The notes: a model not told the origin generated them from the sequence alone. 53,224 nt of DNA from Alphaproteobacteria bacterium (GCA_018658465.1 JABHVE010000014.1:1-53224), one strand, 5' to 3'. Counted from the first letter of the stretch, positions 27,233 to 49,738 are shown. Translations and numbers: made by a program.

Positions 27233-27314
27233 GTGCCTTTGACTCGGTGCCCGCCCCGCAACGCTGGGAGGCTCCACAAATAAATGAATGAACTGGACGG
27301 TTCAGGTACAGGAG

Positions 27315-30828: not shown

Positions 30829-30908
30829 GAACGCCGCGTCGGTTTTTATGGCGTGGGGCATTGATGCCCGGCTTTGTGAGACGATTGGTAATTGACGTGG
30901 GGAGTCCG

Positions 30909-32276
30909 ATGACCAAAAAGTCCAAGCCACAGGTCTCTGACCTCTCTGCCACCCCTGTACTTCCAGTCAGTGGTCGGCAACCCAAATCCCTCGCTCAAAC
31001 TGCTGACCAAGACCCAACCCGACGCAGACTGCTTCTTGGGGCCGCGGCCGCAGCTGGGGCCGCCGCTGTTGCCGCCGCGCCAAAGCAAGCCCAAGCAATC
31101 GCCCCGCCCGGGGCCGTGGAATATCCCGTGCCGGTCGATCCAACCCAGGTTCCCGGTAGGCCCCCTGGTCTGAACGGTGGCTATGGAACCCGGTCGCAAT
31201 TCGAAACGGAAGTTCGCGAGTGGTCAGGCTCAGGAACCTCTAGTCGCACCCCACTGGCGTCATCCGAAGGGACAATTACCCCGTCGGCTTTGCATTTCGA
31301 GCGCCATCACAACGGCATCCCCGAAATTGACCCCGAAGAACATTCATTGTTGGTCCACGGGATGGTGAAACGCCCCCTGACGTTTACGATGGCTGATCTG
31401 AAGCGCCTGCCGTCCACCAGCCGCGTGGCATTTATTGAATGTGGGGGCAATTCAGCCGGGGAATACCACGCCGCCCGGGGCAAAGAAATCCACAACATGC
31501 ACGGCCTTGTGAGCTCGTCCGAATGGACGGGAGTGGCCTTGTCCACCGTGTTGCGCGAAGCCGGTCTGGAATCGGGTGCTGCATGGCTTTTGGCCGAAGG
31601 CCGAGACGCCGCGATGCTTAGTCGCAGCATTCCTCTGGAAAAGGCATTAGATGACGCGGTCCTAGCCTATGCCCAAAACGGCGAGGCTTTACGCCCGGAA
31701 CAGGGCTATCCGTTGCGGCTTTTGCTGCCGGGTTGGGAAGGCATTACCAACGTCAAATGGTTGCACCGGCTGGATGTGTCCGATGCGCCTTTCCAGACCC
31801 GCGAGGAAACATCCCATTACACCGACCTGAACATTGTGACCGGCGAAGCCAAGCAGTTCACCTTTGTCATGGCAGCCAAGTCGCTGATCTTGTTTCCCCA
31901 TCCAGAGGCCAAATTAGAAGGCCCTGGATTTTTCGAAATTACCGGTCTGGCGTGGTCGGGCCGGGGCAAGATCAAACGCGTAGAGGTCACCACGGATGGC
32001 GGCAAAAATTGGCATTTGGCGGAGCTTCAAGAACCGGTTTTGTCGAAATCCCAAACCAGATTTCGGTTCCCCTGGGTGTGGGACGGCGAGCCGACGATGC
32101 TGCAAAGCCGTGCCACCGATGAAACCGGTTACGTTCAGCCAAGCATCCGCCAGCTAAAAGAAGTGCGCGGCGATGCCGAACGGGGCAACGTCAACTACCA
32201 CAACAACGCGATCCAGACCTGGCGGGTCAACCGCGGCGGCACCATCGAAAATGTCCACTTTTCTGGCAATTCATAG
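30909..32276 (+). CDS. soxC: SoxC-like molybdopterin sulfane/sulfite dehydrogenase
   Basis: Tat signal TRRRLL; ITPSALHFERHH; Mo-ligand FIECGGN; QNGEALRPEQGYPLRL; QSRATDETGYVQP; YHNNAIQTW. Confidence 0.9.
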   Translation: MTKKSKPQVSDLSATPVLPVSGRQPKSLAQTADQDPTRRRLLLGAAAAAGAAAVAAAPKQAQAIAPPGAVEYPVPVDPTQVPGRPPGLNGGYGTRSQFETEVREWSGSGTSSRTPLASSEGTITPSALHFERHHNGIPEIDPEEHSLLVHGMVKRPLTFTMADLKRLPSTSRVAFIECGGNSAGEYHAARGKEIHNMHGLVSSSEWTGVALSTVLREAGLESGAAWLLAEGRDAAMLSRSIPLEKALDDAVLAYAQNGEALRPEQGYPLRLLLPGWEGITNVKWLHRLDVSDAPFQTREETSHYTDLNIVTGEAKQFTFVMAAKSLILFPHPEAKLEGPGFFEITGLAWSGRGKIKRVEVTTDGGKNWHLAELQEPVLSKSQTRFRFPWVWDGEPTMLQSRATDETGYVQPSIRQLKEVRGDAERGNVNYHNNAIQTWRVNRGGTIENVHFSGNS

Positions 32277-33612: not shown

Positions 33613-35403
33613 TTGCCTAGGAGTGGTCCAGACGTGCAGTCTTTGAAGGTTCTTTCAGCGCTTCCATCGCGCGCGGATCTTGCGGTGTTGAGCCAGTCCA
33701 TCAAGGACAGCGGGCTCGCCGCGACTGTTACGGAGCACCAGGAGTCCAGCAGTGCGCTGAACGCCCTGTTGGAGGGCGAATTCGATTGCGCATTTATTGG
33801 CGCAGGAAACCCAGGTTTCGACCGGGTCGACATTCTTTCCGAATTGCGCCGGGCAGGAAGCTCGGTTCCCATTGTTTTTGTGCTTGGGGACGGTGGGGAC
33901 GAAAAAATTGCGGATTATTTGTTGGCCGGGGCCCACGATTGCTTGACCCTGGCTGACCTTACCCCCGAAACGATTGCCCGGACCTTGAATACGTCCGCCC
34001 GTGTGCGCCGCGCTGAAGTCCGCGCAGCAGAAGCCGAAGCCCGCCGCAGCCGTCAGCTTTTGTACGACACGCTCACCGGCCTCCCCAATCGCGCCCTGTT
34101 TTTTGATCGGCTAGATCAATCCTTGGCCCTGGCCCGCCGCCAACGCCAACCGTTGTCAGTCATGGTCATGGATCTAAACCGGTTTAAAGAGGTAAACGCC
34201 ACATTGGGGCATCCAGTTGGCGACCAATTGCTTCAAGCCGTCGCGGGGCAGATCATGACATCAGCGCGGGAATCCGACACGATTGCCCGCCTTGGCGGTG
34301 ATGAATTTGCGCTGCTTTTAACCACCGGTGGCACCTACGCCGGGACAATTAGTGCGGCCGAAAAAATTCTGGAAGCGATCCAAGCCCCGATCATCATCCA
34401 AAATCAAAAGTTGGCCGTGGGTACCAGCATCGGAATTTCGTTCTTTCCGGAACACGGCGAAGACAGCGCCACCTTGATGCGCCACGCCGACATCGCCATG
34501 TACGCCGCCAAGCGCAATGCCACAGGATTTTCGGTGTACGCCGGCGAAGCGGCAGACCGGGTGGACGCGGACCATGTGTTCCAATTGTCCCTGTCTGGCG
34601 ACCTGCGCCGGGCGATCCAAGAAGATCAGCTGGAATTAATGTTCCAGCCAAAGATTGGCTTTGATCCGATCAAAATTCGTGGGGTCGAAGCCCTGGTGCG
34701 GTGGAACCACCCGCAACATGGAATGGTAACGCCTGATAATTTCATTCCCCTGGCGGAACAAACTGGTGTGATCGAGCCCTTGACCATTTGGGTCTTGAAC
34801 GCAGCCCTGCGGGAATACAGCCGCTGGCGCGATGAAGGCATTGAAATCCCGGTTGCCGTGAATTTGTCCCCTGTGACCCTTCATGACCGAAATTTCTCCC
34901 GGGATGTTGAAAAGATCCTGGAAATTTGGGACGTGCCGTCCGAGGCCTTGTCGTTCGAAATCACCGAAAGCGCCATCATGTCGGACGTGGCCCGGGCTAC
35001 CGAAACCGTGAACCGACTTCACGCTATGGGGGTCGGCATTTCCATTGACGATTTCGGGACCGGCTACACATCCCTGTCGTACATCCGCAAACTGCCCGTT
35101 CGGGAAATCAAAGTGGATAAATCCTTTGTCATGGGCATGCGGGAAACGGCCGACGACGCTGTCATCGTTCGATCGATAGTCGAATTGGGTCACAATTTGA
35201 GCCTCAGCGTGGTGGCCGAAGGCATCGAAGACACGGAAACTTGGGATTTGTTAGGGGCCCTAAAATGCAACGTGGCCCAAGGCTTTTTGATGAGCCGACC
35301 CTTGCCATCAGACGCAGTCCTTCCCTGGATTCGTGCGTCAGAATGGTCCGGCCACGCAGACAGTGAAGAAACGGCTAAACCCATCCAGGCCGTCATTCCT
35401 TAA
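33613..35403 (+). CDS. Degenerate REC-GGDEF-EAL diguanylate cyclase/phosphodiesterase
   Basis: DTLTGLPNR, I-site RESD, GGDEF, EALVRW, DDFGTGYTSL, EGIE, QG. Start uncertain (TTG 33613 or GTG 33634). Confidence 0.93.
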   Translation: MPRSGPDVQSLKVLSALPSRADLAVLSQSIKDSGLAATVTEHQESSSALNALLEGEFDCAFIGAGNPGFDRVDILSELRRAGSSVPIVFVLGDGGDEKIADYLLAGAHDCLTLADLTPETIARTLNTSARVRRAEVRAAEAEARRSRQLLYDTLTGLPNRALFFDRLDQSLALARRQRQPLSVMVMDLNRFKEVNATLGHPVGDQLLQAVAGQIMTSARESDTIARLGGDEFALLLTTGGTYAGTISAAEKILEAIQAPIIIQNQKLAVGTSIGISFFPEHGEDSATLMRHADIAMYAAKRNATGFSVYAGEAADRVDADHVFQLSLSGDLRRAIQEDQLELMFQPKIGFDPIKIRGVEALVRWNHPQHGMVTPDNFIPLAEQTGVIEPLTIWVLNAALREYSRWRDEGIEIPVAVNLSPVTLHDRNFSRDVEKILEIWDVPSEALSFEITESAIMSDVARATETVNRLHAMGVGISIDDFGTGYTSLSYIRKLPVREIKVDKSFVMGMRETADDAVIVRSIVELGHNLSLSVVAEGIEDTETWDLLGALKCNVAQGFLMSRPLPSDAVLPWIRASEWSGHADSEETAKPIQAVIP

Positions 35404-35515
35404 AGACCGCCTTGGTCGGACCACTTGGCACCGGCCTCCCCCATATGCTACCGCTGGATGGATTGGTGCCGCCTTGGGGCAGCGCCGAATTTTGTCGCAA
35501 ATGAAATCTTGAGCC

Positions 35516-36502
35516 ATGGGCCGTCGTCTCATCGTCCGCGAGGAAATTTGGGATATTGGCGGTGGGTTCAGTATGTCTCGCAGCCGCAAGTGGGCCGCGG
35601 AAGTCTTGATGGTGGAAATCCATGAGGGCGGCCTCCGCGGACGCGGCGAAGGGGTCCCCAACCGCAGACAAGGCGAAAAATTGGAGGATGTTGCCGCACA
35701 GATTGCCAAAGTCCGCGATTTGGTTGAATCCGGCTCCCTGAACCGCGCGGGTTTGCAAACCCTTCTGCCGCCGGGCGCCGCCCGCAACGCCCTTGATTGC
35801 GCCTATTGGGATTTGGAATCCAAATTGAAGGACGTACCCGTCTGGAAATTGGCCAGCCTGCCCGAACCAAAACCTTTGATCACCGCCTTCACTATTACTT
35901 TGGACAAGCCCGCGGCCATGGCCGCTGTGGCTCGGGAACACCGCCACCGACCATTGTTAAAGCTGAAGCTTGGCGGCCCCGATGATCTTGAACGGGTGCG
36001 CGAGGTCCGGGCGGCTGCCCCCGAAGCCAAATTGATCGTCGATGTAAACGAGGCCTGGACCCCGGTTACCTACAGCGAACACGCAACGGAATTGGCGCGC
36101 ATGGGGGTGAAATTGCTGGAACAGCCCCTTCCCGCTGGCCAAGATGCCGCGTTGGCGTCCCTTGGCCGGTCAGTGCCCCTGTGCGCCGACGAATCCCTGC
36201 ATGATTCCAGTGACTTGGCCGCCGTCGCCAAACTTTATGACTTCGTAAACATCAAGTTGGACAAGGCCGGCGGGCTTACCGAAGCCGCCAAAATCGCCGA
36301 CGCCGCGCGGGACCGGGGCATTTCCATCATGATCGGCTGCATGGTGGGGACGTCCCTGGGAATGGCTCCGGCCTTTTTGCTGGGGGCATATGCCCAGATC
36401 GTCGATTTGGATGGCCCCTTGTTGTTGGCCGAAGATCGCCCAGGCGGCATCCAATATGACGGCGGCATCATGCAGCCACCCACATCGGAGTTTTGGGGAT
36501 GA
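35516..36502 (+). CDS. Enolase-superfamily dipeptide epimerase / N-acetyl-D-Glu racemase (YcjG/DgcA-like)
   Basis: Motifs GAARNALDCA-x-WD, KLKLG, DVNE, EQP, DES, NIKLDKAGG, GCM, DLDG. Confidence 0.9.
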   Translation: MGRRLIVREEIWDIGGGFSMSRSRKWAAEVLMVEIHEGGLRGRGEGVPNRRQGEKLEDVAAQIAKVRDLVESGSLNRAGLQTLLPPGAARNALDCAYWDLESKLKDVPVWKLASLPEPKPLITAFTITLDKPAAMAAVAREHRHRPLLKLKLGGPDDLERVREVRAAAPEAKLIVDVNEAWTPVTYSEHATELARMGVKLLEQPLPAGQDAALASLGRSVPLCADESLHDSSDLAAVAKLYDFVNIKLDKAGGLTEAAKIADAARDRGISIMIGCMVGTSLGMAPAFLLGAYAQIVDLDGPLLLAEDRPGGIQYDGGIMQPPTSEFWG

Positions 36503-37188
36503 TCGAACCCCGAGACCCGGAGACCGCGCGGCCAATTGGTGTCGTGCTGGCGGACAAAAACCCCATCATTTTGTCGGGCCTAGAACGGGTGTTCAATGAC
36601 GCCAGCGCCTTCACCGTCGTGGCAGTGGCGGCGGACGGAGAACGCTTTTTGGAAGCCGTGAGCCGCCTAGAATTTGACGTAGGCGTCATTGGCTGGGAAA
36701 TGCCTTATCTGGACGGTCGTGGGGTGTTGCAAGAATTGCGTGACAATGCCGATGCCCCACGGATTGTGGTGTACGCCGGGGCGCCCTCCACAGAAATTCC
36801 CAAACTGGTGATGGCCTTGGGCGGAGCCGGGTTTTGCCCCGAAGACGCGCCGACCGACGTGCTGCTGGAAACCGTGGCAGCCGTGGCCCAGGGGCGCATG
36901 ATGTTTCCCTACATCGATGTCCGCACCCTGGAAACCGACCCGTTTTCCCACCTGACCCACCGGGAGCGAGAATTGCTGCCATCCCTGCGCACCGGACGCA
37001 CCACAGCGCAAATTGCCAGCGATCTGGGTATTTCAGTCAACACCGTGAAATATCATCTGAAAAATTTGTACGCGAAACTTGGGGTCCGCAATCGCGCCCA
37101 GGCGGTTGATGCATACCTGACAGCCCAGGCGAACCTTGGGACTCCAGCAATTGGAGGCCCCGGCCATGTGCCGGTTAGTCGCGGGTAG
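36499..37188 (+). CDS. NarL/LuxR-family response regulator with atypical receiver
   Basis: REC-like N-terminus (LADKNP; FDVGVIGWEMP with Gly at the phospho-Asp site) and LuxR HTH LTHRERE...ISVNTVKYHLKNLYAKLGVRNR; ATGA overlap with the epimerase. Confidence 0.9.
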   Translation: MIEPRDPETARPIGVVLADKNPIILSGLERVFNDASAFTVVAVAADGERFLEAVSRLEFDVGVIGWEMPYLDGRGVLQELRDNADAPRIVVYAGAPSTEIPKLVMALGGAGFCPEDAPTDVLLETVAAVAQGRMMFPYIDVRTLETDPFSHLTHRERELLPSLRTGRTTAQIASDLGISVNTVKYHLKNLYAKLGVRNRAQAVDAYLTAQANLGTPAIGGPGHVPVSRG

Positions 37189-37288
37189 GGTTTCCCAACC
37201 CCGCCGCATGATCGACCATTATCACCCTTTTAGGTAGGTCATTTCCTACCCGTCCGGGGGTTCTTTTCAAAATTCGGATTGGTATAAT
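37183..37288 (+). promoter_or_regulatory. Candidate cbb operon promoter with repeated GGTAG/CTACC half-sites and extended -10
   Basis: TGGTATAAT (TATAAT at 37283-37288); inverted repeat GGTAGG-N6-CCTACC at 37233-37250; related GGGTAG-N7-CAACCC at 37183-37201. Confidence 0.55.
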
Positions 37289-37347
37289 GGGGGCCTTAAC
37301 GAGAGGTGGTCGGCGCCACGTGGTGCACATGACCCCCGGGAGGATCA

Positions 37348-38562
37348 ATGTTGCAAGGTAAAGTGCTCGTCGCCCAGGGCGGCGGGCCTACGGCTGTCAT
37401 CAATCAATCGCTTGTGGGCGTTGTCCTGGAAGGCCGCAAATTCGAGTCATCGGACCGGATTTACGGTGCCCGGCATGGTGTCAGCGGCATTGTGAACGAG
37501 GATTTCGTCGATCTGACCCAGGAGACTACCGACCACCTGGAACGGATCGCGGCGACCCCCTGTGCGGCCCTTGGAAGCACACGGGACAAGCCAGATTTGG
37601 CCTATTGCCAGGAGATTTTCAAGGTCCTGAAGGCCCATGAAATTGGCACCTTTTTCTATCTTGGCGGCAACGATTCCTCCGACACCATGCGCATTCTGTC
37701 CGAAGAGGCGCAAAAGGATGGCTATGGGCTCACATGCATCCATGTGCCCAAGACCATCGACAATGATTTGATGGTTAATGACCACACCCCTGGATTCCCA
37801 TCTGCGGCGCGATTTGTGGCCAGCGCCTTCGCCGGAATTAATCTGGATAACGAGGCCTTAGAGGGTGTGTACGTGGGGGTCGTTATGGGCCGCCATGCAG
37901 GGTTCCTTACCGCTGCTGCGGCACTTGGCCGCACATTTCCGGATGATGGGCCCCACCTGATTTATTTACCGGAACGCGATTTCGATATGGAGCAGTTCCT
38001 GGGCGATGTGAAATCGGTTTATGACCGCCTGGGGCGCTGCGTGATCGCGGTTTCCGAAGGCATTCATGACGCCAGCGGCGAAGCCATGATGACGAAATTG
38101 GCGGACAAAGTGGAACGCGACGCCCACGGCAATGTTCAGCTTTCCGGCACCGGTGCCTTGGCCGACTTGTTGACCGGGGCGATCCGCGACAAACTCGGCA
38201 TCAAGCGGGTCCGCGGCGATACTTTTGGCTATCTCCAGCGGTCGTTCTTGGGCTGCGTGTCCGATGTGGATCAGCGGGAAGCACGGGAAGTCGGCGAAAA
38301 GGCGGTTCAGTACGCCAATGCGGGCAACAGCACCGGCACCGTCACCATTCACCGGGTGGGAAACTACGCCACGGACTACCAGCTCCGCCCCCTCACAGAC
38401 GTGGCTGGCAAGACCAAGGTGATGGACCTGTCGATGATTTCCAAGTCCGGCAATGACGTGACCCAAGAATTTCTTGATTACGGGACTCCGTTGTTGGGGT
38501 CCGGAATGCTGACACCGGCGCGACCTCGCGCCAACCCAGTGGCCAAAATTTTGGGTGCCTAG
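37348..38562 (+). CDS. pfp: Pyrophosphate-dependent 6-phosphofructokinase
   Basis: QGGGPTAVIN, GGNDS (Asp at the PPi/ATP determinant), PKTIDND (Lys), MGRHAG, GYLQR. Confidence 0.88.
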   Translation: MLQGKVLVAQGGGPTAVINQSLVGVVLEGRKFESSDRIYGARHGVSGIVNEDFVDLTQETTDHLERIAATPCAALGSTRDKPDLAYCQEIFKVLKAHEIGTFFYLGGNDSSDTMRILSEEAQKDGYGLTCIHVPKTIDNDLMVNDHTPGFPSAARFVASAFAGINLDNEALEGVYVGVVMGRHAGFLTAAAALGRTFPDDGPHLIYLPERDFDMEQFLGDVKSVYDRLGRCVIAVSEGIHDASGEAMMTKLADKVERDAHGNVQLSGTGALADLLTGAIRDKLGIKRVRGDTFGYLQRSFLGCVSDVDQREAREVGEKAVQYANAGNSTGTVTIHRVGNYATDYQLRPLTDVAGKTKVMDLSMISKSGNDVTQEFLDYGTPLLGSGMLTPARPRANPVAKILGA

Positions 38563-38616
38563 GCACAGTTTGGAACACCGGATTTCTGATCAAATGCGTG
38601 GACGAGGATTATAGCA

Positions 38617-39558
38617 ATGGCTGACACCGCGACGAAAAAGAAGCATACGGTTTTGGGAATCGTTGGCGACTCCGCCACCGGCAAAACCACCCTGACCAAG
38701 GGCATTGCCGATATCCTGGGACCAGACCGGGTCACCACCATCTGCACCGATGACTATCACCGTTATGACCGGGTGGAGCGTTCGGAAAATGGCCTGTCGG
38801 CTTTGGACCCGCGCTGCAATTACATCGACATCATGGAGCAGCACGTCAAACAGATTTCCGAGGGCAAGCCCATCCTGCGGCCGGTTTACAGCCACCACGA
38901 CGGCACCTTGGAACGCCCGATCTATGAAGAACCCAAAGAGTTCATCGTCTTCGAAGGGCTGCTGGGCTTCACTACCCGGTCGCTACGCGACCTGTTCGAC
39001 GTGAAGGTTTTTCTGGAACCCGATGAAGACCTGCGGATCCGCTGGAAGGTCGACCGGGATACCGGCAAGCGCGGCTACTCCAAAGAAGAAGTGATGAAGT
39101 CACTGAAGAAACGCGAAAGCGACAGCCCTGAATTTATCATGCCTCAGCGGACCTTCGCCGACATCGTGGTGCAGTTCTATCCGCCTGAGGAAAATGCCGA
39201 AGAATCCGGCGCGCATTTGAACGTACGTCACACCCTGCGCCCAACACTGCCGCACCCGGATTTGTCACCGATTTTGCAGTCCGGCGTACAAAATGGACTG
39301 CATCTGGAATTGGTCCGCGATGCCGACGGCAAGCCGGTGGACGTGTTGGAAATTCCCGGAAACATCACCGACGATTCCGCTGGCAAGTTGGAAGACCTGA
39401 TTTGGTCTTTGCTGCCAGAAGCCCAAGAGCTGCGCGCCAACGTTGGCAAATTCACCGACGGCAGCAATGCACCTCACATGAGCCACCCCCTTGCGCTGAC
39501 ACAGCTGTTGATCGCCTTCCACATGGTCAAAGCTCAGGTCGGCGTGCACGCGATCTAA
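38617..39558 (+). CDS. prk: Phosphoribulokinase of the cyanobacterial/actinobacterial-like type
   Basis: GIVGDSATGKTT, DDYHRYDR, NYIDIMEQH, EGLL, WKVDRD-x-x-KRGY; located inside the cbb operon. Confidence 0.9.
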   Translation: MADTATKKKHTVLGIVGDSATGKTTLTKGIADILGPDRVTTICTDDYHRYDRVERSENGLSALDPRCNYIDIMEQHVKQISEGKPILRPVYSHHDGTLERPIYEEPKEFIVFEGLLGFTTRSLRDLFDVKVFLEPDEDLRIRWKVDRDTGKRGYSKEEVMKSLKKRESDSPEFIMPQRTFADIVVQFYPPEENAEESGAHLNVRHTLRPTLPHPDLSPILQSGVQNGLHLELVRDADGKPVDVLEIPGNITDDSAGKLEDLIWSLLPEAQELRANVGKFTDGSNAPHMSHPLALTQLLIAFHMVKAQVGVHAI

Positions 39559-39581
39559 TTTTTATATAGTCGGAGGCCACC

Positions 39582-41564
39582 ATGGCAGAAAATACAAACG
39601 TCACGCACGACCAGATGGCTAACGCCATCCGCGCCCTGTCCATGGACGCCGTGGAGGCTGCAAATTCAGGCCATCCCGGCATGCCCATGGGGATGGCCGA
39701 TGTGGCCACTGTGCTGTTCACAAAGTTCCTGAAATACGATCCGTCTCAGCCCGATTGGGCAGACCGGGATCGCTTTGTGTTGTCCGCCGGCCATGGCTCG
39801 ATGCTGCTGTATTCGTTGCTGTATTTGACCGGCTACCCGGAAATGACCATCGACGAAATCAAGCATTTCCGCCAACTGGGGGCGAAGACCGCAGGCCATC
39901 CGGAGTACGGTCACGCTCCGGGGATTGAGACCACCACCGGGCCCCTGGGTCAGGGCATTGCCACCGCCGTTGGCATGGCCATAGCCGAGCGTCATTTGGC
40001 GGCCGAATTCGGTGACGATGTGGTCGATCACACCACCTATGTGATCGCCGGCGACGGGTGCTTGATGGAAGGCATCAGCCACGAAGCGATCTCGTTCGCC
40101 GGGCACTTGCGCCTCGGCAAACTGGTCGTCATGTGGGACGACAACGACATCTGCATCGACGGCCCCACATCCATGACAGTCAGCGATGACCAAATTGCCC
40201 GATTTAAAGCCTCTGGCTGGAACACCATGGCATGCGACGGCCACGACCCAGCAGCGGTGGAAAAATGCCTTGCAGCGGCGCAAGGCAGCGACAAGCCGAC
40301 TTTCATTGCCTGCAAGACCACCATTGCTTTCGGCTCCCCCAACAAGGGTGGCACATCGGCGGCACATGGCGCGGCTTTGGGCGCCGACGAAATCGCCGCG
40401 ACCCGCAAGCAATTGGGATGGGAACACGGCCCCTTCGAAATTCCCCAGGACATCATGGCCGCATGGCGCCTAGCCGGAACACGGGCGGCGAAGGCCGCAG
40501 CAGATTGGCAAATTCGTCTGGACGCTTCGGCGAAGAAGGCAGAATTCGGACGCCGCATTGCCGGTATTTTGCCGGAAAATTGGCTCGATGCAGTCAACGC
40601 GCTGAAAATTCGCTTGGCCGATGAAGCCCCGGCCATGGCCACCCGCAACGCCAGCCAAGAGGCGCTTGAGGTGATTAATCCGGCGGTGCCGGAAACCGTT
40701 GGCGGCTCCGCCGATCTGACCGGTTCAGTGAACACGTTGACGAAGGACTTGGGCGCCCTGAGCAGCGACAATTACGGTGGGCGTTATGTTCATTACGGAG
40801 TGCGCGAACACGCCATGGGCGCTGCCATGAACGGCATGGCATTGCACGGCGGCATGATCCCGTACGCCGGTACATTTTTTGTGTTCACCGATTATCTGCG
40901 CCCGGCCATGCGCCTGTCGGCGCTGATGGGCATCCGGGTGATCTATGTGATGACCCACGATTCCATCGGCCTTGGCGAAGACGGCCCCACCCATCAGCCG
41001 GTCGAACACCTGGCCAGCGTACGGTCCATGCCCAACGTCATGGTCTTACGCCCGGCGGACGCAGTTGAAACCGCGGAATGCTGGTCACTGGCATTGCAAA
41101 ACGACACTGGCCCGTCGGTCATGGTTTTGACCCGCCAAAAATTGCCGGCGTTGCGCACGACCCACACGGATAAAAATCTATGCGCAATGGGCGGTTATGA
41201 AATTTCCCCGGCAGAGGGCGATGCCCGGGTAAGCTTGTTGGCCACGGGTTCCGAGGTTTCCTTGGCGGTGGAAGCACAAAAACTTTTGGCAGCCGAAGGC
41301 GTCCCCGCCCGGGTGGTTTCGATCCCATGCTGGGAATTGCTGGAAGCTTTGGACGAAGAAGCTCGGGAAGCCGTTCTTGGGGTCGACACGGTACGGATCG
41401 CCGTCGAAGCCGGGGTTTCCTATGGCTGGGACCGCTACGTCGGCAGCGACGGCGCTTTCGTCGGGATGACCTCGTTTGGCGCCTCGGCACCAGCACCGGA
41501 TCTATACGAACACTTTGGAATTACCGCCAAAGAAGTGGCGGCAGCAGCAATCGCGCACCTTTAA
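39582..41564 (+). CDS. tkt: Transketolase
   Basis: Motifs [50 protein letters not shown]. Confidence 0.97.
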
Positions 41565-41581
41565 ATCGGGAGGCAGGGACA

Positions 41582-42592
41582 ATGGCAGCAACTCGCGTAG
41601 CAATTAACGGATTCGGCCGCATTGGCAGACTGGCACTGCGGGCCCTTGTGGAATCAAAACGCAAGGACATCAAAGTCATCGCCATCAACGATCTTGGCCC
41701 GGTGGCGACCAATGCTCACTTGCTGAAACACGATTCAATCCACGGGGAATTCCCCGGCAAGGTCAAAACCTTCAAAAACGCCATCGATGTGGGCGCGGGA
41801 AAAATTCAGGTGTTTGCGGAACGCAACCCCCTGGACCTGCCATGGAAAGAACTGAAAATCGACGTGGTTCTGGAATGCACCGGCTTTTTCACCAAGCGTG
41901 AAGATGCCGCTATGCACATCAAGGCAGGGGCCAAGCGCGTTCTGGTTTCGGCTCCGGCTGCTGGCGCTGATCTCACCGTGGTTTACGGGGTGAACGACAA
42001 GAAATTGCGGAAGAAACACAAGGTCATTTCCAACGCCTCGTGCACCACCAATTGCTTGGCACCGGTGGCTCAGACCCTGAACAACTCCATCGGCATTGCC
42101 CAGGGGTTCATGACCACAATCCACGCCTATACGGCGGACCAACGGGTCCAGGACACCTTGCACGGTGATTTGCGCCGGGCCCGTTCGGCGGCATCGTCGA
42201 TCATTCCGTCGTCCACCGGTGCGGCCAAGGCCGTTGGTCTGGTTCTGCCGGAACTGGCAGGCAAACTGGACGGCACCGCCATGCGGGTCCCCGTCATCAA
42301 CGTCTCGGTGGTGGATTTAAAATTCAATTCCAAGAAGCCGACGGATGTGGAGTCGGTAAACGCCGCGCTGATCAAAGCTTCAAAGGGCCCCTTAAAAGGC
42401 ATATTGAAAGTCACGAACGAGCCCCTGGTTTCGACGGACTTCAACCACACGATGGCGAGTTCCACCATCGATCTGAGCCAGACCCAAGTGGTGGGCAACA
42501 AATTCGTTCGGATTATGTCTTGGTATGACAACGAGTGGGGCTTTGCTAACCGCATGCTCGACACCGCGTCGGCCATCGGCAAACTCGGCTAG
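41582..42592 (+). CDS. gap: Type I glyceraldehyde-3-phosphate dehydrogenase
   Basis: INGFGRIGR, SNASCTTNCLAP, WYDNEWGF; GGAGG RBS before ATG 41582. Confidence 0.97.
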   Translation: MAATRVAINGFGRIGRLALRALVESKRKDIKVIAINDLGPVATNAHLLKHDSIHGEFPGKVKTFKNAIDVGAGKIQVFAERNPLDLPWKELKIDVVLECTGFFTKREDAAMHIKAGAKRVLVSAPAAGADLTVVYGVNDKKLRKKHKVISNASCTTNCLAPVAQTLNNSIGIAQGFMTTIHAYTADQRVQDTLHGDLRRARSAASSIIPSSTGAAKAVGLVLPELAGKLDGTAMRVPVINVSVVDLKFNSKKPTDVESVNAALIKASKGPLKGILKVTNEPLVSTDFNHTMASSTIDLSQTQVVGNKFVRIMSWYDNEWGFANRMLDTASAIGKLG

Positions 42593-42607
42593 TTGGGGCA
42601 AGGACGC

Positions 42608-43846
42608 GTGACCAACTTCGCAACTCTGAACGATCTGGACGTCAAGGGCCGCCGCGTATTGGTGCGCTCTGATCTGAACGTGCCGGTGCAGGATGGCGTT
42701 ATTTCTGACGCCACCCGCATTGATCGTGGCTCGATTACCATTGCCGAGCTTAGTGCTGCGGGGGCCAAGGTAATCGTCCTTTCCCATTTCCGCCGGCCGT
42801 TGGGTCAGCGCATTCCGGAAATGAGTCTGCGGCCGGTGGCCAAGGGTCTGTCCGATGCCTTGGGCGGAAAGGCCGTTGCCTTTTCCGACGATTGCATTGG
42901 CGAAGTGGCAATAAAGGCGGTCGCCGCCATGAAAAACGGCGACATTCTGCTGTTGGAAAATGTGCGGTTCCACAAAGGCGAAGAAGCCAACGATCCGGAA
43001 TTTGCCAAATCGTTGGCAGCCCTGGGCGATCTGTACGTGAACGATGCCTTCAGCTGCGCCCACCGCGCCCATGCCTCCACCGAGGCCTTGGCCGGCCTGT
43101 TGCCCAGTGCCGCTGGACGCAATATGGAAGCCGAACTGAGTGCCCTGGACAGCGCCCTGGGCACGCCAGAACGCCCGGTTGCCGCCGTGGTCGGTGGCGC
43201 CAAAATTTCCAGCAAACTGGAATTGCTTACGTCGTTGGTAGATAAGGTCGATACCCTGGTCATTGGCGGTGCCATGGCCAATACATTTTTGCAGGCCCGC
43301 GGGTTTTCCGTGGGCACCAGCCTGTGCGAGCCCGACCTGGTGGCGGTGGCCCGAACCATCGATTTGCGGGCCAGCGCCACGGCATGCGATTTGGTGCTGC
43401 CGTTTGAAGTGGTGATCGCCGAGTCCCTCACCGAAGGAGCACCGACCAGGACCATTTCCGCCGGCGAAGTGCCCGAGGACATGATGATCCTGGATGTGGG
43501 ACCGGCTGCGGTTTCTGAAACCGTCCGTCGTCTGACCCTGTGCAAGACTGTGGTTTGGAACGGTCCCATGGGGGCCTTCGAGATCCCGCCATTCGACGCG
43601 GGCACTAACGCCGTGGCCCAGGCGGTTGGCACTCTGTGCCGCCAAGGGGACCTGCTGGCGGTGGCCGGTGGCGGCGACACGGTCTCAGCATTGACCAACG
43701 CCGGGGTCGCAGATGAATTTACGTACCTGTCCACCGCGGGCGGGGCGTTTTTAGAGTGGTTAGAGGGCAAAGAGTTGCCGGGGGTCGCGGCCCTTAGCAA
43801 GGCAGCTGCAAAAGCCCCGGCCCAAGAGAATTTGGCACAAGTGTAG
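42608..43846 (+). CDS. pgk: Phosphoglycerate kinase
   Basis: VRSDLNVP, LLENVRF, NDAF-x-x-AHRAH, GGAKIS, WNGPMG, GGGDT, STAGGAFLE; GTG start. Confidence 0.97.
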   Translation: MTNFATLNDLDVKGRRVLVRSDLNVPVQDGVISDATRIDRGSITIAELSAAGAKVIVLSHFRRPLGQRIPEMSLRPVAKGLSDALGGKAVAFSDDCIGEVAIKAVAAMKNGDILLLENVRFHKGEEANDPEFAKSLAALGDLYVNDAFSCAHRAHASTEALAGLLPSAAGRNMEAELSALDSALGTPERPVAAVVGGAKISSKLELLTSLVDKVDTLVIGGAMANTFLQARGFSVGTSLCEPDLVAVARTIDLRASATACDLVLPFEVVIAESLTEGAPTRTISAGEVPEDMMILDVGPAAVSETVRRLTLCKTVVWNGPMGAFEIPPFDAGTNAVAQAVGTLCRQGDLLAVAGGGDTVSALTNAGVADEFTYLSTAGGAFLEWLEGKELPGVAALSKAAAKAPAQENLAQV

Positions 43847-43890
43847 ATCGGCCGCATTGGGCGGCAAACAACTCGACACGACATTCATGA

Positions 43891-45360
<1,470 letters not shown>

Positions 45361-45376
45361 CGGATAGGAGAAAACA

Positions 45377-45796
45377 ATGAAACTTACGCAAGGCACGTTT
45401 TCGTTTTTGCCCGATCTGACAGACGACGAGATCAAGGCACAAATTCAATACGCCATGGATCAAGGTTGGGCGTTGAATGTCGAATATACGGACGATCCAC
45501 ATCCCCGTAACACCTATTGGGAACTGTGGTGCCAGCCGATGTTTGACACCACCGATCCGGCAGCCGTAATGATGGAAGTCGCTGAATGCCGCAAGGTGTA
45601 TGGCAACATGTACATCAAGGTGAATTCGTTCGATAACACCCGCGGCAGAGAAACGGTTTCCATGTCGTTCATCGTGAACCGTCCCAAGGACGAACCGGGA
45701 TTTGGCGTTTCCCGCGAGGAATCTCATGGCCGCAACATCCGCTATCGGATTCACAGCTACGCCACCGATAAGCCGGAAGGCCGCCGCTACGAATAG
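45377..45796 (+). CDS. cbbS: Rubisco small subunit, red type
   Basis: MKLTQGTFSFLPDL, TDDPHPRNTYWE, C-terminal hairpin extension GRNIRYRIHSYA. Confidence 0.98.
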   Translation: MKLTQGTFSFLPDLTDDEIKAQIQYAMDQGWALNVEYTDDPHPRNTYWELWCQPMFDTTDPAAVMMEVAECRKVYGNMYIKVNSFDNTRGRETVSMSFIVNRPKDEPGFGVSREESHGRNIRYRIHSYATDKPEGRRYE

Positions 45797-45810
45797 GCGG
45801 TCCATTGGAC

Positions 45811-45838
45811 GCTGGGGTGGGATCAGTCCTGCCCCAGC
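45811..45838 (+). other. Intergenic stem-loop between cbbS and cbbX
   Basis: GCTGGGGTGGGA-TCAG-TCCTGCCCCAGC, with no U-tract immediately after. Confidence 0.6.
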
Positions 45839-45850
45839 CTCCCAATTTGG

Positions 45851-46798
45851 ATGCAAATGACAGAAGAACTGACGACCGAAGAGACTGAAAATGGCGACGG
45901 GGGCAACGAAGCCCCCAAAAAACCGCTGGCGACCTCGTTTGACCTCCAGGCCGAATACGAAGGGTCACACATCCAGGACACCCTGGATCAGCTTGACAAA
46001 GAGCTGGTTGGGCTGGACCCGGTAAAGGCTCGGATCCGAGAAATTGCAGCGCTGTTGCTGGTTTCCAAAGCCCGCCGAGAATTGGGGTTAGAGACCGAGC
46101 CCCCCACCCTGCATATGTCGTTTACCGGCAATCCCGGTACCGGCAAAACCACGGTGGGACTGCGCATGGCCGACATCCTTCATAAATTGGGATATGTGCG
46201 CCAAGGCCACATGGTCAGCGTTACCCGGGATGATTTGGTTGGCCAATACATCGGCCATACCGCACCGAAGACCCGCGAAGTGATCAAGAAGGCAATGGGC
46301 GGCGTGCTGTTCATTGACGAGGCGTACTACCTGTATCGCCCGGAAAACGAGCGCGACTATGGCCAAGAAGCGATCGAAATTTTGCTTCAGGTTATGGAAA
46401 ATAATCGCGACGACCTGGTGGTGGTTTTGGCAGGCTATGCCGACAAAATGGAGATCTTTTTCCGCAGCAATCCAGGCTTTCGCTCGCGCATCGCCCACCA
46501 TCTGGAATTTCCGGATTATTCGAAGGGTGAATTGCATGAAATTGCCCAATTGATGATGGAAAACCAGTCCTACAAATTTAGCGACGAGGCTCAGGAAGTT
46601 CTGCGGGAATACATTACCTTGCGCATGACCCAGTCGCATTTTGCCAACGCGCGGTCGATCCGCAACGCCATAGACCGCGCCAAGCTGCGCCAAGCGAATC
46701 GCTTGTTCGATGACCGATCCGGCAAACCCCTTGATCGGGACGCTTTGATGACCATCGAGGCTTCCGACATCCAGGCCAGCCGCATTTTCACGATGTAG
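45851..46798 (+). CDS. cbbX: Red-type Rubisco activase CbbX
   Basis: [56 protein letters not shown]. Start is 45851 or 45857. Confidence 0.98.
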
Positions 46799-46821
46799 TC
46801 TTCGGGAACTCAGGAAAAATC

Positions 46822-47379
46822 ATGGCAAAAAGTGGCGGAATTGGACCCCTTATCCCTGTTGCAGTAACTGGCGTCATGTTCGCCGTGGTTCTGGGAATAT
46901 TTTTCGGCTCTCAGTCGGACCCTGATCCGATTGCAGAAGACGTGGACGTGACAGCCATTGAGCCCGATGAACCCATCGGGCCCGCCATTGCCGTGTTGCC
47001 ATTTCTGATCCGGGCGAATTCGTCTATCGCTCCGGGTGTCGCCGATAACTTGGCTGATCAGATCACGAAAAACCTAATGGAAGCCGAGGGCCTGACGGTG
47101 TCGCCAAAGGATCAGGTGGCGGTGTACGAAAACGGCGTGCGGCCATCGTTGGGGGAAATGTCCTACGATTTGCGGGTTCGTTATATTTTCCAGGCGATTA
47201 TTTATGGGGAAGACAACGAAATCCGGGTCGATGCGCGGCTGGATGACGGCATGACCGGATACACGTTGTGGACCGGAAGCTATTGGGCAGAACGGGTCAC
47301 GTTGTTCGACCTGCACACCGAAATTTCGAATTCGATTCTCAACGAAATTGGCATGGCCGACGCTGCCCCTGCAAATTAA
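46822..47379 (+). CDS. Membrane-anchored protein with a stand-alone TolB-N-like (IAVLPF) domain
   Basis: N-terminal TM, acidic linker, then IAVLPF...ADNLADQI...LRVRYI...IRVDARL...G-x-x-LW...LFDL, as in TolB-like domains of cyclases; AGGA RBS. Confidence 0.75.
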   Translation: MAKSGGIGPLIPVAVTGVMFAVVLGIFFGSQSDPDPIAEDVDVTAIEPDEPIGPAIAVLPFLIRANSSIAPGVADNLADQITKNLMEAEGLTVSPKDQVAVYENGVRPSLGEMSYDLRVRYIFQAIIYGEDNEIRVDARLDDGMTGYTLWTGSYWAERVTLFDLHTEISNSILNEIGMADAAPAN

Positions 47380-47391
47380 AGCGCAAGAGCG

Positions 47392-47475
47392 CTATCCGCC
47401 GCTGAACGACACCACCATCGCGGCGACGATGATTGCCAGCAAGGCAGCGATCAGAATTAGATCCAGGAATTTCAT
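47392..47475 (-). CDS. Possible 27-aa single-TM microprotein
   Basis: MKFLDLILIAALLAIIVAAMVVSFSGG*, starting 8 nt after the PDO stop; weak RBS. Confidence 0.4.
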   Translation of the reverse strand: MKFLDLILIAALLAIIVAAMVVSFSGG

Positions 47476-47483
47476 TGCAAGGC

Positions 47484-48554
47484 TTAAGAGCCCCCACCGT
47501 CCTGGTTTGCACCCTCGTCATAGATTACCGGGCCGCCCGCTTCCATCCAGGCCTTAATGCCGCCCACAACGCTGGCGACATCCGTTAGGCCCGCTTCTTT
47601 GGCTGCTTCCACCGCCATGGCAGACCGTTCCCCATAGGAACAGAAAAAGATCAAGCGCTTGCCCCCGGTGGTGGACTCGAATTGCAGCAAGCCACCGGGG
47701 CGAAAATATTGGTCCAACGCCGCATAGGGCGCATGGACTGATCCGGCAATGTTGGCATCGTGCCGGCGCTCCGACACTTCCCGCAAATCCACCAACAGCG
47801 CTCCATCCCCGTCAGCCTCGGCAATGGCGTCGCCGGCGGATAAGCCCCACCCTTCTTTGACTCCCTTTTCCTGGGAAAGCCCCATGGCCCGATTAGTTGG
47901 CACAGCCACATCCATCATTTTCGGACTGGGCAGCGCCAGATTGTCCATGATTTTTGCGTATTCCTCTGGGGACGACACCTGAAGTCGGGGATTGAACGCC
48001 CGTTCCTCCGCCACCGTGCTAACCGTCATGCCGTTATAATCGTGTCCGGGGAAAATCAGTGTGTCGTCGGGCAATGTCAGCAATTTGCCGAAAATTGAGT
48101 CGTAGGCTTCGTGGGAATTCCCCGCCTGGAAATCAGTGCGTCCGGTGCCACGGATGAACAGAGCATCACCAGTGAACACTCGGTCATCCATGACGAAGCT
48201 ATAGGATTCCGCCGTGTGCCCGGGGGTATGGAGGGCTTTCAGGCGCAAATCACCGGCTTCCACCCAATCGCCGTCGCGAACCCGCATGGACACCACATCC
48301 GTGGGGCTTTCCTGCCCCATCACGGTCACGCACCGGGTGGCGTCGCGCAGGGCGCCAATGCCCGATACATGATCGGCGTGCATATGGGTATCAATGGCTT
48401 TGACCAGCTTCAAATCCAGCTCGTTAATCAGTCGCAAATACTGTTCAACTTTTTCCAGCACCGGATCGATAATCAGGGCTTCCGCACCCAGGCGAGCCGC
48501 CAGCAGGTAGGTATAGGTTGCTGACCCAGAGTCGAAAATTTGGCGAAACAGCAT
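47484..48554 (-). CDS. Persulfide dioxygenase (ETHE1-like) fused to rhodanese
   Basis: FRQIFD...TYTYLL, DTHMHADH, HTPGHT, FTGDALFIRG-x-GRTDFQ, PGHDY, NPRL; rhodanese FCSYGERS. Confidence 0.92.
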   Translation of the reverse strand: MLFRQIFDSGSATYTYLLAARLGAEALIIDPVLEKVEQYLRLINELDLKLVKAIDTHMHADHVSGIGALRDATRCVTVMGQESPTDVVSMRVRDGDWVEAGDLRLKALHTPGHTAESYSFVMDDRVFTGDALFIRGTGRTDFQAGNSHEAYDSIFGKLLTLPDDTLIFPGHDYNGMTVSTVAEERAFNPRLQVSSPEEYAKIMDNLALPSPKMMDVAVPTNRAMGLSQEKGVKEGWGLSAGDAIAEADGDGALLVDLREVSERRHDANIAGSVHAPYAALDQYFRPGGLLQFESTTGGKRLIFFCSYGERSAMAVEAAKEAGLTDVASVVGGIKAWMEAGGPVIYDEGANQDGGGS

Positions 48555-48679
48555 TGGATGGGCCTTAAAAAAACCAGTCGAACAACGTGATATCCTAACA
48601 GATAGCGTCAGGTTCGGGATGACATGAGCGCCGGGTTGTGCAAACTTCGCACTTCGTAGCGCAACGCTCTGGGGAAATT

Positions 48680-49126
48680 ATGGCGAATGTGACGGTTGCG
48701 GATCATATCAAGGCACCTGCGGACAAGGTGTGGGCCCTTATTGGGCCTTTCAAATCCATTGCGGATTGGATGCCCGGATTTGAAAGTACGGAGGTCGAAG
48801 GCGCCGGTGTCGGCGCTGTGCGGGTCATAACCACCGCAGACGGCGGCAAAGTTACCGAACGGCTGCTGGCGGAAAATCCATCGCCCCTTGGCTATACCTA
48901 CGAAATTTTATCCAGCCCATTCCCCATCCAAAACTATGTGAGCACGATCATGGTGGTGGACGAGGGGGACGGGTCCTGCACCCTGTCGTGGGTGTGCAAT
49001 TTCGAGCCCGTGGACGCCCCCGAAGATGAGCTCACCCAAGCGTTTTCCGACATGTACAAGGGTGCCATCGCCAATATTCAATCATTGACCGAGGGCGACG
49101 CCCCCGAAGGCCCGGAAGCGGCATAG
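48680..49126 (+). CDS. SRPBCC (polyketide cyclase/dehydrase-like) family protein
   Basis: APADKVWALIG-x-F...WMP, GVGAVR, YTYEI...P-x-x-NY-x-S. Confidence 0.88.
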   Translation: MANVTVADHIKAPADKVWALIGPFKSIADWMPGFESTEVEGAGVGAVRVITTADGGKVTERLLAENPSPLGYTYEILSSPFPIQNYVSTIMVVDEGDGSCTLSWVCNFEPVDAPEDELTQAFSDMYKGAIANIQSLTEGDAPEGPEAA

Positions 49127-49216
49127 AGCAGATCGTGGCGCATTTTTGTGCCACGTGAATCTGATCGCATCCAAAAAACTCGCCAACGGGCGGTCGGCGA
49201 AATTTCTCGGACGACC

Positions 49217-49738
49217 CTAGTCCCAGCCCCGCCCAAGGATGCGGTCGATCTCCACCCGTCCGTGACGCCGTGGATCAGGGTCCGGCTGGGCCGAAACACT
49301 TGCTAGCATATCGATATAGTCGCCGGGCAAGGCGTGCTGTCGTGCCCCGGCCACCACCAAATCCTGGTACCAATCATAGGGCTGCAAGCCATCGTCCATG
49401 GCTTTGGGTCTAGCGTGATAGGTGGCGGCCGTCAGACTGTGGCCCAGGGGAAATTGCGTAATCTCGAACAAATCGTCGCGCAGGTAGCCGGTCCCTTCGG
49501 CCTTGTCTAAGGCAACCACATCGGGTGCAGCGATGGTGAACAGGACGCCAAAGGCATTGTGCCCCGACGCCCGTACCAGCGTGGCTTTTCCTGATCCATC
49601 CTCACTGCGTTTGGAGAACCGAACCCGGTAGCCTTCCGCGTATCCCTTGCCAATCGGATGGGCCGAGGGGCACCGTGCCCGCAATCGCTCGGTCAACATG
49701 TTCGAGCCGAAGGCGAAATATTTCACAGGATGATCCAA
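49217..49738 (-). CDS. Gamma-glutamylcyclotransferase-fold protein
   Basis: YFAFGSNM, GVLF-x-I, LDKAEG-x-x-Y, P-x-x-WY...GA...LP. Start may be GTG 49726. Confidence 0.85.
   Translation of the reverse strand: MDHPVKYFAFGSNMLTERLRARCPSAHPIGKGYAEGYRVRFSKRSEDGSGKATLVRASGHNAFGVLFTIAAPDVVALDKAEGTGYLRDDLFEITQFPLGHSLTAATYHARPKAMDDGLQPYDWYQDLVVAGARQHALPGDYIDMLASVSAQPDPDPRRHGRVEIDRILGRGWD

Follow-up and report, generated by a model that had tools for sequence, protein, structure and literature searches.

A pyrophosphate-type phosphofructokinase gene in the glpX position of a Calvin cycle operon of planktonic Alphaproteobacteria

The stretch of DNA analyzed here (GCA_018658465.1, JABHVE010000014.1:1-53224; 53,224 nucleotides, hereafter the window) is contig C39 of an alphaproteobacterial metagenome-assembled genome (MAG) of 2.05 Mb, in 155 contigs and at 95% completeness (G000). 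At positions 37348-47379 it carries nine plus-strand genes, pfp, prk, tkt, gap, pgk, cbbL, cbbS, cbbX, and a gene for a protein of 185 amino acids (aa), which form a Calvin cycle operon that is genuine and vertically inherited within a small planktonic alphaproteobacterial family. Only in this family, as judged against sister operons and 80 metagenome loci, does a gene for a pyrophosphate (PPi)-dependent 6-phosphofructokinase (PPi-PFK), pfp, occupy the slot that elsewhere belongs to glpX, encoding the class II fructose-1,6-bisphosphatase/sedoheptulose-1,7-bisphosphatase (FBPase/SBPase). The best-supported reading, and in our judgment a reasonably probable one, is that of an energy-saving operon in which PPi-PFK would do the work of the bisphosphatase. 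More tentatively, and with more reserve than conviction, we suggest that the operon belongs to a widespread and undescribed alphaproteobacterial Calvin regulon, marked by a LuxR/NarL-type regulator lacking its phospho-acceptor Asp and by a separate clade of phosphoribulokinase (PRK), and that one planktonic family has swapped the FBPase gene for PPi-PFK in situ and is now losing glpX. Gene families were assigned with Pfam and NCBIfam profiles, with scores in bits set against the curated cut-off where one is given, and the features are as follows.

36493-37188, + strand: response regulator of the LuxR/NarL family (REC plus GerE helix-turn-helix [HTH]; Pfam), without the phospho-acceptor Asp
37189-37347, + strand: leader of 159 bp, presumed to hold the operon promoter; the widest gap between genes of the cluster
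37348-38562, + strand: pfp, PPi-dependent 6-phosphofructokinase (PFK-A, about 40 kDa type; NF010675, 478.3 versus 273)
38617-39558, + strand: prk, phosphoribulokinase of a distinct PRK07429-like clade (NF005655, 374.8 versus 236)
39582-41564, + strand: tkt, transketolase (TIGR00232, 832 bits)
41582-42592, + strand: gap, type I glyceraldehyde-3-phosphate dehydrogenase (TIGR01534, 429 bits)
42608-43846, + strand: pgk, phosphoglycerate kinase (PF00162, 465 bits)
43909-45360, + strand: cbbL, Rubisco large subunit, red-type form I, assigned to form IC (NF003252, 775 bits)
45377-45796, + strand: cbbS, Rubisco small subunit (PF00101, 131 bits)
45851-46798, + strand: cbbX, red-type Rubisco activase (AAA+; TIGR02880, 519 versus 459)
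46822-47379, + strand: gene for the 185-aa protein, without a Pfam or NCBIfam family

From pfp through the 185-aa gene, the intergenic gaps measure 54, 23, 17, 15 (or 0), 62, 16, 54, and 23 bp. These values follow refinement of two starts: gap begins at ATG 41582, the start of the longer open reading frame (ORF) at 41327 having been dropped, and pgk probably begins at GTG 42608 (alternative, TTG 42593). The original prediction, made from the sequence alone, had described nine co-oriented genes separated by about 15 to 65 bp, and the refined range of 15 to 62 bp bears this out. It was also right that cbbR, cbbF, cbbA, and cbbE are missing from the operon, a departure from the classic cbbR-F-P-T-A-L-S-X layout. 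The operon is best extended upstream to the LuxR-type regulator gene, which is conserved along with it.

The taxonomic order of the source genome holds 23 species in two families, 10 in the window's family (genome sizes, 1.3 to 2.5 Mb) and 13 in its sister family. This Rubisco, this PRK, and this pfp are all carried by 10/10 species of the former, and the coordinates place pfp immediately before prk in every one of those genomes. A search of MAG collections for the same gene order, proposed in the original prediction, found it across the window's family: the order DgcA-like gene-LuxR-pfp-prk-tkt-gap-pgk-cbbL-cbbS-cbbX is full in 7/7 family loci on contigs long enough to hold it, and an eighth locus, on a shorter contig, shows the distal part of the operon, consistent with the same order. 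Between genera of the family, protein identities of 62 to 88% point to old vertical descent. The sister family has neither prk (0/13) nor pfp (0/13), and in place of a form I Rubisco it has only Rubisco-like proteins, 34 to 37% identical, in 4/13 genomes; the operon was therefore either gained by the ancestor of the window's family or lost by the sister family.

Of 401 genomes sampled from the class, 5 hold the same PRK type, three of them belonging to other families. In these three, a LuxR-type regulator gene is followed by glpX, prk, tkt, and class II aldolase (fbaII), and in one also by rpe. A metagenome scan with the PRK alignment gave 80 loci, and directly upstream of prk stand glpX (37 loci), the LuxR gene (24), pfp (6), or nothing visible (13). 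PRK is 78 to 96% identical to that of the window in the six pfp loci and 57 to 69% identical in all the others, which assigns those six to the clade of the window's family. The glpX-prk-tkt-fbaII layout is thus widespread and the pfp layout confined to one family, making the window operon the derived form. Loci L107-L109 and 61/80 of the metagenome loci represent this sister operon type, which reads aRR-glpX-prk-tkt-fbaII-(rpe or Rubisco), where aRR is the atypical response regulator. It shares with the window the regulator family, the PRK clade, and the prk-tkt core, but has glpX (or nothing between regulator and prk) where the window's family has pfp, and it retains the class II aldolase, whereas the window operon has no aldolase. 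The closest other layout, glpX-prk-tkt-gap-pgk-fbaII-cbbL in loci L181 and L183, also shares gap-pgk and a red-type cbbL (75 to 76%) with the window; the LuxR-type regulator precedes glpX in L183, and no upstream regulator was detected in L181. The Rubisco of the sister type is often elsewhere or of another form, with a green-type enzyme in 8 loci and, in 12, one that shares only ~30% identity with form I and is on that ground probably another form; the regulator-prk-tkt module would accordingly pair with several Rubisco forms. In those 12 loci (L126-L128, L132, L135, L140, L145, L152, L154, L189, L191, and L193), the ~30%-identical Rubisco gene follows the aldolase gene.

The PRK that defines these loci is not of class I. 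The classic proteobacterial model (NF011997/PRK15453) scores 44.2 against a cut-off of 362, and the NF005655 match covers residues 6-307. Its best solved relatives, PDB entries 9qko/9qkp/9qkn ("cyanobacteria specific phosphoribulokinase"), match at full length with 331 and 325 bits, so that the likeness spans the C-terminal half too; those entries are from cyanobacteria, and no paper on 9qko/9qkn was found in the literature. The canonical cyanobacterial PRK reaches 170 bits over the N-terminal part only, and where canonical PRK 6gve has the P-loop GDSGCGKST, the window PRK has GDSATGKTT, without the P-loop Cys. Homologues number 6339 at E <= 1e-20, and the named ones at 65 to 70% identity come from Hyphomicrobiales, Rhodospirillales, and Alphaproteobacteria MAGs. 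The enzyme had been called a non-proteobacterial PRK in the original prediction. This stands insofar as it is outside the classic proteobacterial class, but not as to its distribution, given the homologues in alphaproteobacterial MAGs and its presence in three further families of the class.

That the first gene of the operon encodes a PPi-type PFK was also predicted, and the profile scores agree: NF010675 lies well above its cut-off, and ATP-PFK models score far below theirs. The best PDB matches are the PPi-PFKs 3hno and 3k2q. Residues 106-113 read GGNDSSDT, in which D109, the Asp of the PPi type, is invariant in seven family sequences, and the protein also carries PKTIDND. Published signatures are GG(D/E)D(S/T) for the PPi enzyme and GGDGSxxI for the ADP type of some alphaproteobacteria, as given in PMC11609450. 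A quickly searched tree, supported by SH-aLRT values alone and midpoint rooted just for display, was built on 88 rows, namely the window, 80 named loci, and 7 rows from the family or from metagenomes. In it the family genes form one clade (SH-aLRT, 97) nested in clades of alphaproteobacterial MAGs (99 and 98), and betaproteobacterial sequences stand apart from it. This placement assigns pfp an alphaproteobacterial origin. Single-gene phylogenies had been suggested as a check for incongruence; the pfp tree, the one that was run, speaks against the idea of an operon assembled from parts of different origin as far as pfp is concerned. A foreign pfp was ruled out by the same tree, and relocation of a resident pfp into the operon is unsupported because pfp is found in 0/13 genomes of the sister family. 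Among 80 genomic loci with a pfp at 71 to 77% identity, cbb genes lie nearby in 5, all of them in the window's family.

The gene inventories of the 10 family genomes fit a PPi economy. The H+-translocating pyrophosphatase (H+-PPase) gene hppA is present in 10/10, and a soluble PPase of PF00719 (family I) in 0/10, family II PPases not having been searched for. Class I FBPase was likewise found in 0/10, with no search made for IMPase-type FBPases. Matches to glpX occur in 7/10 genomes (two copies each in G000 and its congener and one each in five others), with none in G002, G003 (98% complete), or G005. In G008, glpX is a pseudogene with an in-frame stop and ~91 internal residues deleted (locus L212, G008:C34:2500-6000, about 1363-2028). 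The earlier suggestion of an energy-saving variant fits these genomes, with pfp in the glpX slot, an H+-PPase throughout, no PF00719 match, and glpX missing from three genomes and decayed in a fourth, in what looks like a lineage where some members can do without the old FBPase. Class I aldolase is present in 10/10 family genomes; class II aldolase has no full-length match in any of them and no match at all in G000. The original prediction asked that fba, tal, fbp/glpX, rpe, rpi, and hppA be sought elsewhere in the genome, and the outcome for G000 is mixed: class I aldolase, two glpX, rpe, and hppA are there, together with tpi, and class II aldolase, transaldolase, class I FBPase, and both rpiA and rpiB were not found. 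Since rpiB is present in 4/4 relatives searched and lies ~8 kb from hppA in three (G001:C103, G003:C5, and G006:C2), the contig end that cuts hppA in G000 (contig C140) probably explains the lack of an rpi match there. Compared with the PPi cycle as defined after Kleiner, PPi-PFK, H+-PPase, Rubisco, and PRK occur together in 10/10 genomes. FBPase and SBPase (class I plus glpX) are missing from G002, G003, G005, and effectively G008, but not from G000, and pfp is not adjacent to hppA as it is in gammaproteobacterial symbionts.

We propose that the ancestor was an operon of the widespread type, with an Asp-less LuxR-type regulator, glpX, prk of the special clade, tkt, class II aldolase, and rpe or Rubisco. 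In the window's family, an alphaproteobacterial PPi-PFK gene would have taken the glpX slot, the aldolase slot would have been lost, and gap-pgk-cbbLSX would have come to follow tkt. We infer from the predicted enzyme type that the reversible PPi-PFK would convert fructose-1,6-bisphosphate (FBP) or sedoheptulose-1,7-bisphosphate (SBP) plus Pi into fructose-6-phosphate or sedoheptulose-7-phosphate plus PPi, so that PPi is made instead of Pi being released. The membrane H+-PPase, the only PPase found, could then turn PPi into proton-motive force and so make CO2 fixation cheaper in ATP. The rest of the cycle, which has no transaldolase, would be supplied by genes outside the operon (class I aldolase, rpe, tpi, and rpiB), and the Asp-less response regulator would control transcription in place of CbbR.

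Several observations, on energy source, on pfp and its partners, and on expression and control, weigh against this scheme. In the five family genomes searched for energy markers, the photosynthetic reaction center (Photo_RC), SoxB, and NiFe hydrogenase were each found in 0/5, DsrA gave weak sub-cut-off matches in 2/5, and form I CoxL gave weak sub-cut-off matches as well. With no lithotrophic or phototrophic markers in these genomes, the operon may be there for redox balancing or mixotrophy and not for autotrophy. The cycle would then be an electron sink or a means of CO2 re-assimilation in a heterotroph or mixotroph, a view to which we give serious, though not equal, weight. It is also favored by the amino-acid ABC transporter genes and the D-glutamate racemase-like gene of the window, and by the cbbL transcripts of unclassified Alphaproteobacteria in the Lake Constance hypolimnion, whose energy metabolism is called speculative (PMC12642877). 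Set against it are the SoxC-type sulfite dehydrogenase and the metallo-beta-lactamase (MBL)-rhodanese protein encoded in the window, which make oxidation of sulfur compounds possible; the SoxC-type enzyme is possibly a sulfite-oxidizing route for energy or detoxification. The markers searched were only a handful, and heavy use is suggested by the presence, in a 2-Mb genome, of a conserved operon that is dedicated to the cycle and includes a Rubisco activase gene. As a matter of physiology, this alternative can hold together with the PPi mechanism.

The retained glpX copies raise a second alternative, in which pfp would work mainly in glycolysis or as a two-way valve on hexose phosphates, leaving the FBPase/SBPase work to the housekeeping glpX genes, and its position in the operon would reflect co-regulation of carbon flow. 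G000 has two apparently intact glpX genes, in the housekeeping contexts hom-glpX-recJ and between a purM-like gene and mipA, with scores of 251 and 240, just under the NCBIfam equivalog cut-off of 259. Because G000 keeps both, its cycle can be closed without pfp, which could act glycolytically; the congener has two copies as well, and five relatives have one each, including the G008 pseudogene. PPi-PFK is reversible, and Rhodospirillum rubrum keeps an FBPase alongside its PPi-PFK, according to PMC6486704. The limits of the PPase and FBPase searches given above also weigh against the scheme, as do the position of hppA at the end of another contig (G000:C140), unlinked to pfp, and the missing rpiA and rpiB in a 95% complete MAG. 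The third position of the pfp motif is Asn and not the published Asp/Glu, and no example of SBP use was met among enzymes of the exact pfp clade. We nevertheless judge a glycolytic role unlikely: pfp takes the exact glpX slot of sister operons, glpX is not found in three family genomes and decayed in G008, class I FBPase is found in none, and the count of soluble PPase of PF00719 (0/10) stands against that of H+-PPase (10/10).

As to expression and control, contigs from RNA libraries (marine or seawater, three studies) at least 99% identical to the window cover 37345 to about 46210. They record presence, which leaves room for more than one transcript and for carried-over DNA. The regulator's target is read from gene position only. 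The contigs bridge six junctions (pfp-prk, prk-tkt, tkt-gap, pgk-cbbL, cbbL-cbbS, and cbbS-cbbX) with zero differing letters; one (X1) departs from the window sequence after 40163. None lies on 35000-36867, 46675-47141 (most of the 185-aa gene), or 47609-48542, and the uncovered stretches prove nothing. A chimera produced in assembly or binning, or foreign parts patched together very recently, might be invoked from the sister family's want of prk, pfp, and form I Rubisco and from the cyanobacterial source of the best solved relative of the PRK clade, but it is highly improbable in the face of the same order in 10 species assembled independently and in additional metagenome contigs, the bridged junctions, a GC content even throughout the region, an alphaproteobacterial pfp, a LuxR-prk-tkt core common to other alphaproteobacterial families, and between-genus identities as old vertical descent predicts. 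The assembly chimera, which the original prediction had named as its own refutation, was examined and is excluded by the gene order in independent assemblies, metagenome contigs, and RNA-library contigs across junctions.

The regulator proposed in our scheme is an atypical NarL/FixJ response regulator, which, as its sequence suggests, probably acts independently of phosphorylation. In alignments with PDB entries, its Gly67 falls on the phospho-acceptor Asp of NarL (DLNMP) and ChrA (DIQMP), and at least 90% of the 62 homologues collected from these loci keep the motif IGW.MP. No histidine kinase gene lies among the annotated neighbors at 33613-49738, and the only one seen in the window is at 6637-7740. 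The regulator gene is conserved upstream of the operon in all family loci and stands upstream of this PRK type in 45 of the 49 metagenome loci that offer 2.3 kb or more of space. CbbR is the usual regulator of Calvin cycle operons (PMC9833100), which an adjacent LysR-type CbbR normally controls (PMC13199381, 2026). No LysR-type cbbR stands beside the operon, where the neighbors are the LuxR-type regulator and a DgcA-like racemase, with CbbR elsewhere not searched for. Judging from its place, the Asp-less regulator probably controls the operon in place of CbbR. The leader (37189-37347) is presumed to be the promoter region from its position; a scan of 36400-47700 gave 1 promoter-like site versus 4.5 expected and 11 terminator-like sites versus 13 expected, and Rfam gave no match on 35000-49000 at E up to 0.1.

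Analogous regulators of the same family have been described. SecR regulators, as reported in PMC13199381, combine a NarL/FixJ REC domain with a LuxR-type HTH, are mostly without the phospho-acceptor Asp, and lack a partner kinase, and they adjoin a C1-assimilation cluster in Alphaproteobacteria, where they stand in the place that other bacteria give to a LysR-type CbbR homologue. Unlike the window regulator, SecR accompanies the serine cycle and not the Calvin cycle. No relevant description of a LuxR-type regulator of a cbb operon was found in the literature, and this conserved atypical regulator, standing where CbbR would be expected, may be the most novel part of the system.

The Rubisco is of the bacterial red type, form IC, as assigned by identity ranking. 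Among PDB entries, cbbL scores 934 bits with 25hn, 868 with Galdieria (1bwv), 853 with Griffithsia, 822 with Cupriavidus necator, ~813 with diatoms, and 802 with Rhodobacter sphaeroides. Galdieria thus ranks above both solved form IC enzymes, which explains the earlier impression of a form ID-like Rubisco. That impression does not hold: identity to Galdieria is ~80% (counted on the alignment), a value normal within the red Rubisco lineage (PMC9833100), and many bacterial proteins are closer, at 83 to 88%, a ranking on which form ID was rejected. Relatives at 83 to 85% include the named "Candidatus Methylomirabilis," Novosphingobium sp., and uncultured "Candidatus Thioglobus," and MAGs of Sphingomonadaceae, Anaerolineales, and Pyrinomonadaceae. 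The arrangement agrees with form IC, with cbbL and cbbS followed by cbbX and the closest relatives bacterial and red-type. The closest structure, 25hn, has a six-residue insertion after VPNT relative to the window protein. Two database entries for the Rubisco large subunit are over-long (P0122, 680 aa; P0183, 632 aa), and P0183 also has transketolase C-terminal domains; this suggests either that tkt and cbbL adjoin directly on some contig or that two genes were called as one.

At the distal end, the 185-aa protein has an N-terminal hydrophobic membrane anchor. Its AlphaFold2 (AF2) model has a mean pLDDT of 74.9, with residues 52-185 confident, and the top Foldseek matches are FlgT, the TolB N-domain, GNA1162, PelC, and LpoB (E about 1e-7), all of them cell-envelope proteins. 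On this modeled fold it is classed as a membrane-anchored, TolB-N/LpoB/PelC-like periplasmic envelope protein. It is 82% identical to the same-genus copy and 22 to 33% identical between genera, compared with 86% and 71 to 77%, respectively, for cbbX, and in G003 no copy was detected downstream of cbbX. It is probably a passenger unrelated to the Calvin cycle. The genes around the operon include the following.

23693-27277, - strand: ORF of 1194 aa; the only Pfam match is a weak one to Pyr_redox_2, residues 407-605
30861-32276, + strand: SoxC-type sulfite dehydrogenase (TIGR04555, 529 versus 420)
33613-35403, + strand: REC-GGDEF-EAL protein, flanking the region
35516-36502, + strand: DgcA-like N-acetyl-D-Glu racemase (NF042940, 437 versus 400)
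47484-48554, - strand: protein with an MBL fold and a rhodanese domain (Pfam; below all NCBIfam cut-offs)
49751-52060, - strand: GAF-GAF-PAS adenylate/guanylate cyclase, flanking the region

The end of the DgcA-like gene overlaps the TTG start of the regulator gene by 10 bases. It lies upstream of the regulator in 7/7 family loci that reach that far, and elsewhere it was seen only in family contigs. The MBL-rhodanese protein, encoded directly downstream of the operon here and in the congener, resembles a persulfide dioxygenase or glyoxalase II. Genes of second-messenger signaling (REC-GGDEF-EAL and the GAF-GAF-PAS cyclase) are dense for a 2-Mb genome.

How much of this is new can be judged against described systems. 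The combination had been thought undescribed, but the concept of a PPi-dependent Calvin cycle is itself already in print. It was set out for chemosynthetic symbionts by Kleiner et al. in 2012 (as cited in PMC6486704), it is described for the alphaproteobacterium "Candidatus Riegeria santandreae," with PPi-PFK, H+-PPase, and a cited ATP saving of up to 31.5% (PMC6486704), and a study of Thioglobaceae mentions the same FBPase replacement (PMC13508795). As in the window, the symbiont cycle has PPi-PFK proposed for the FBPase/SBPase steps and an H+-PPase to use the PPi, and in "Ca. Riegeria" the PPi-PFK gene is likewise alphaproteobacterial in origin and unlinked to the H+-PPase gene, itself described as alphaproteobacterial (PMC6486704). 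The differences are that the window pfp is the first gene of a cbb operon, in the glpX slot of sister operons, and that the family is apparently free-living plankton and not symbiotic. As described in PMC6486704, "Ca. Riegeria" moreover has a form IA Rubisco, where the window has red-type form IC with CbbX, lacks FBPase and SBPase, where G000 keeps glpX, and carries sulfur-oxidation genes (rDSR) that were not found in the family genomes searched. The classic cbb operon of C. necator and R. sphaeroides resembles the window in its co-oriented prk, tkt, gap, pgk, cbbL, cbbS, and cbbX and in pairing a red-type Rubisco with CbbX. It has a divergent LysR-type CbbR where the window has the Asp-less LuxR-type regulator, and the window cluster, unlike it, has no class I FBPase, class II aldolase, or rpe and a PRK of another class. 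No PPi-PFK inside a cbb operon was found in the literature, though the supplement of PMC6486704 (gene maps and PFK tree) may bear on that, and no description of the operon of this lineage was found, for which the supplement of PMC12642877 (cbbL tree) may be relevant. What is new is the replacement of glpX by pfp within the operon, with glpX loss in stages, and the conserved Asp-less regulator that accompanies the PRK clade.

If the in situ swap and the ongoing loss of glpX are as suggested, these genomes would hold a natural, stepwise record of a cheaper, PPi-dependent Calvin cycle evolving in free-living bacteria. Until now the case for that cycle has been built largely on missing FBPase genes and on symbiont expression data; with pfp in the FBPase position and glpX at differing stages of loss among sister species, the family offers a clean comparative system for the hypothesis. 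The analysis also points to a regulator candidate other than CbbR and to a poorly known PRK clade, both of which accompany many environmental Calvin cycle operons. The window's family is found in marine and lake assemblies, and the marine and seawater RNA-library matches, taken with the unexplained alphaproteobacterial cbbL transcripts reported from lake water in PMC12642877, suggest that the group may contribute to dark carbon fixation in plankton.

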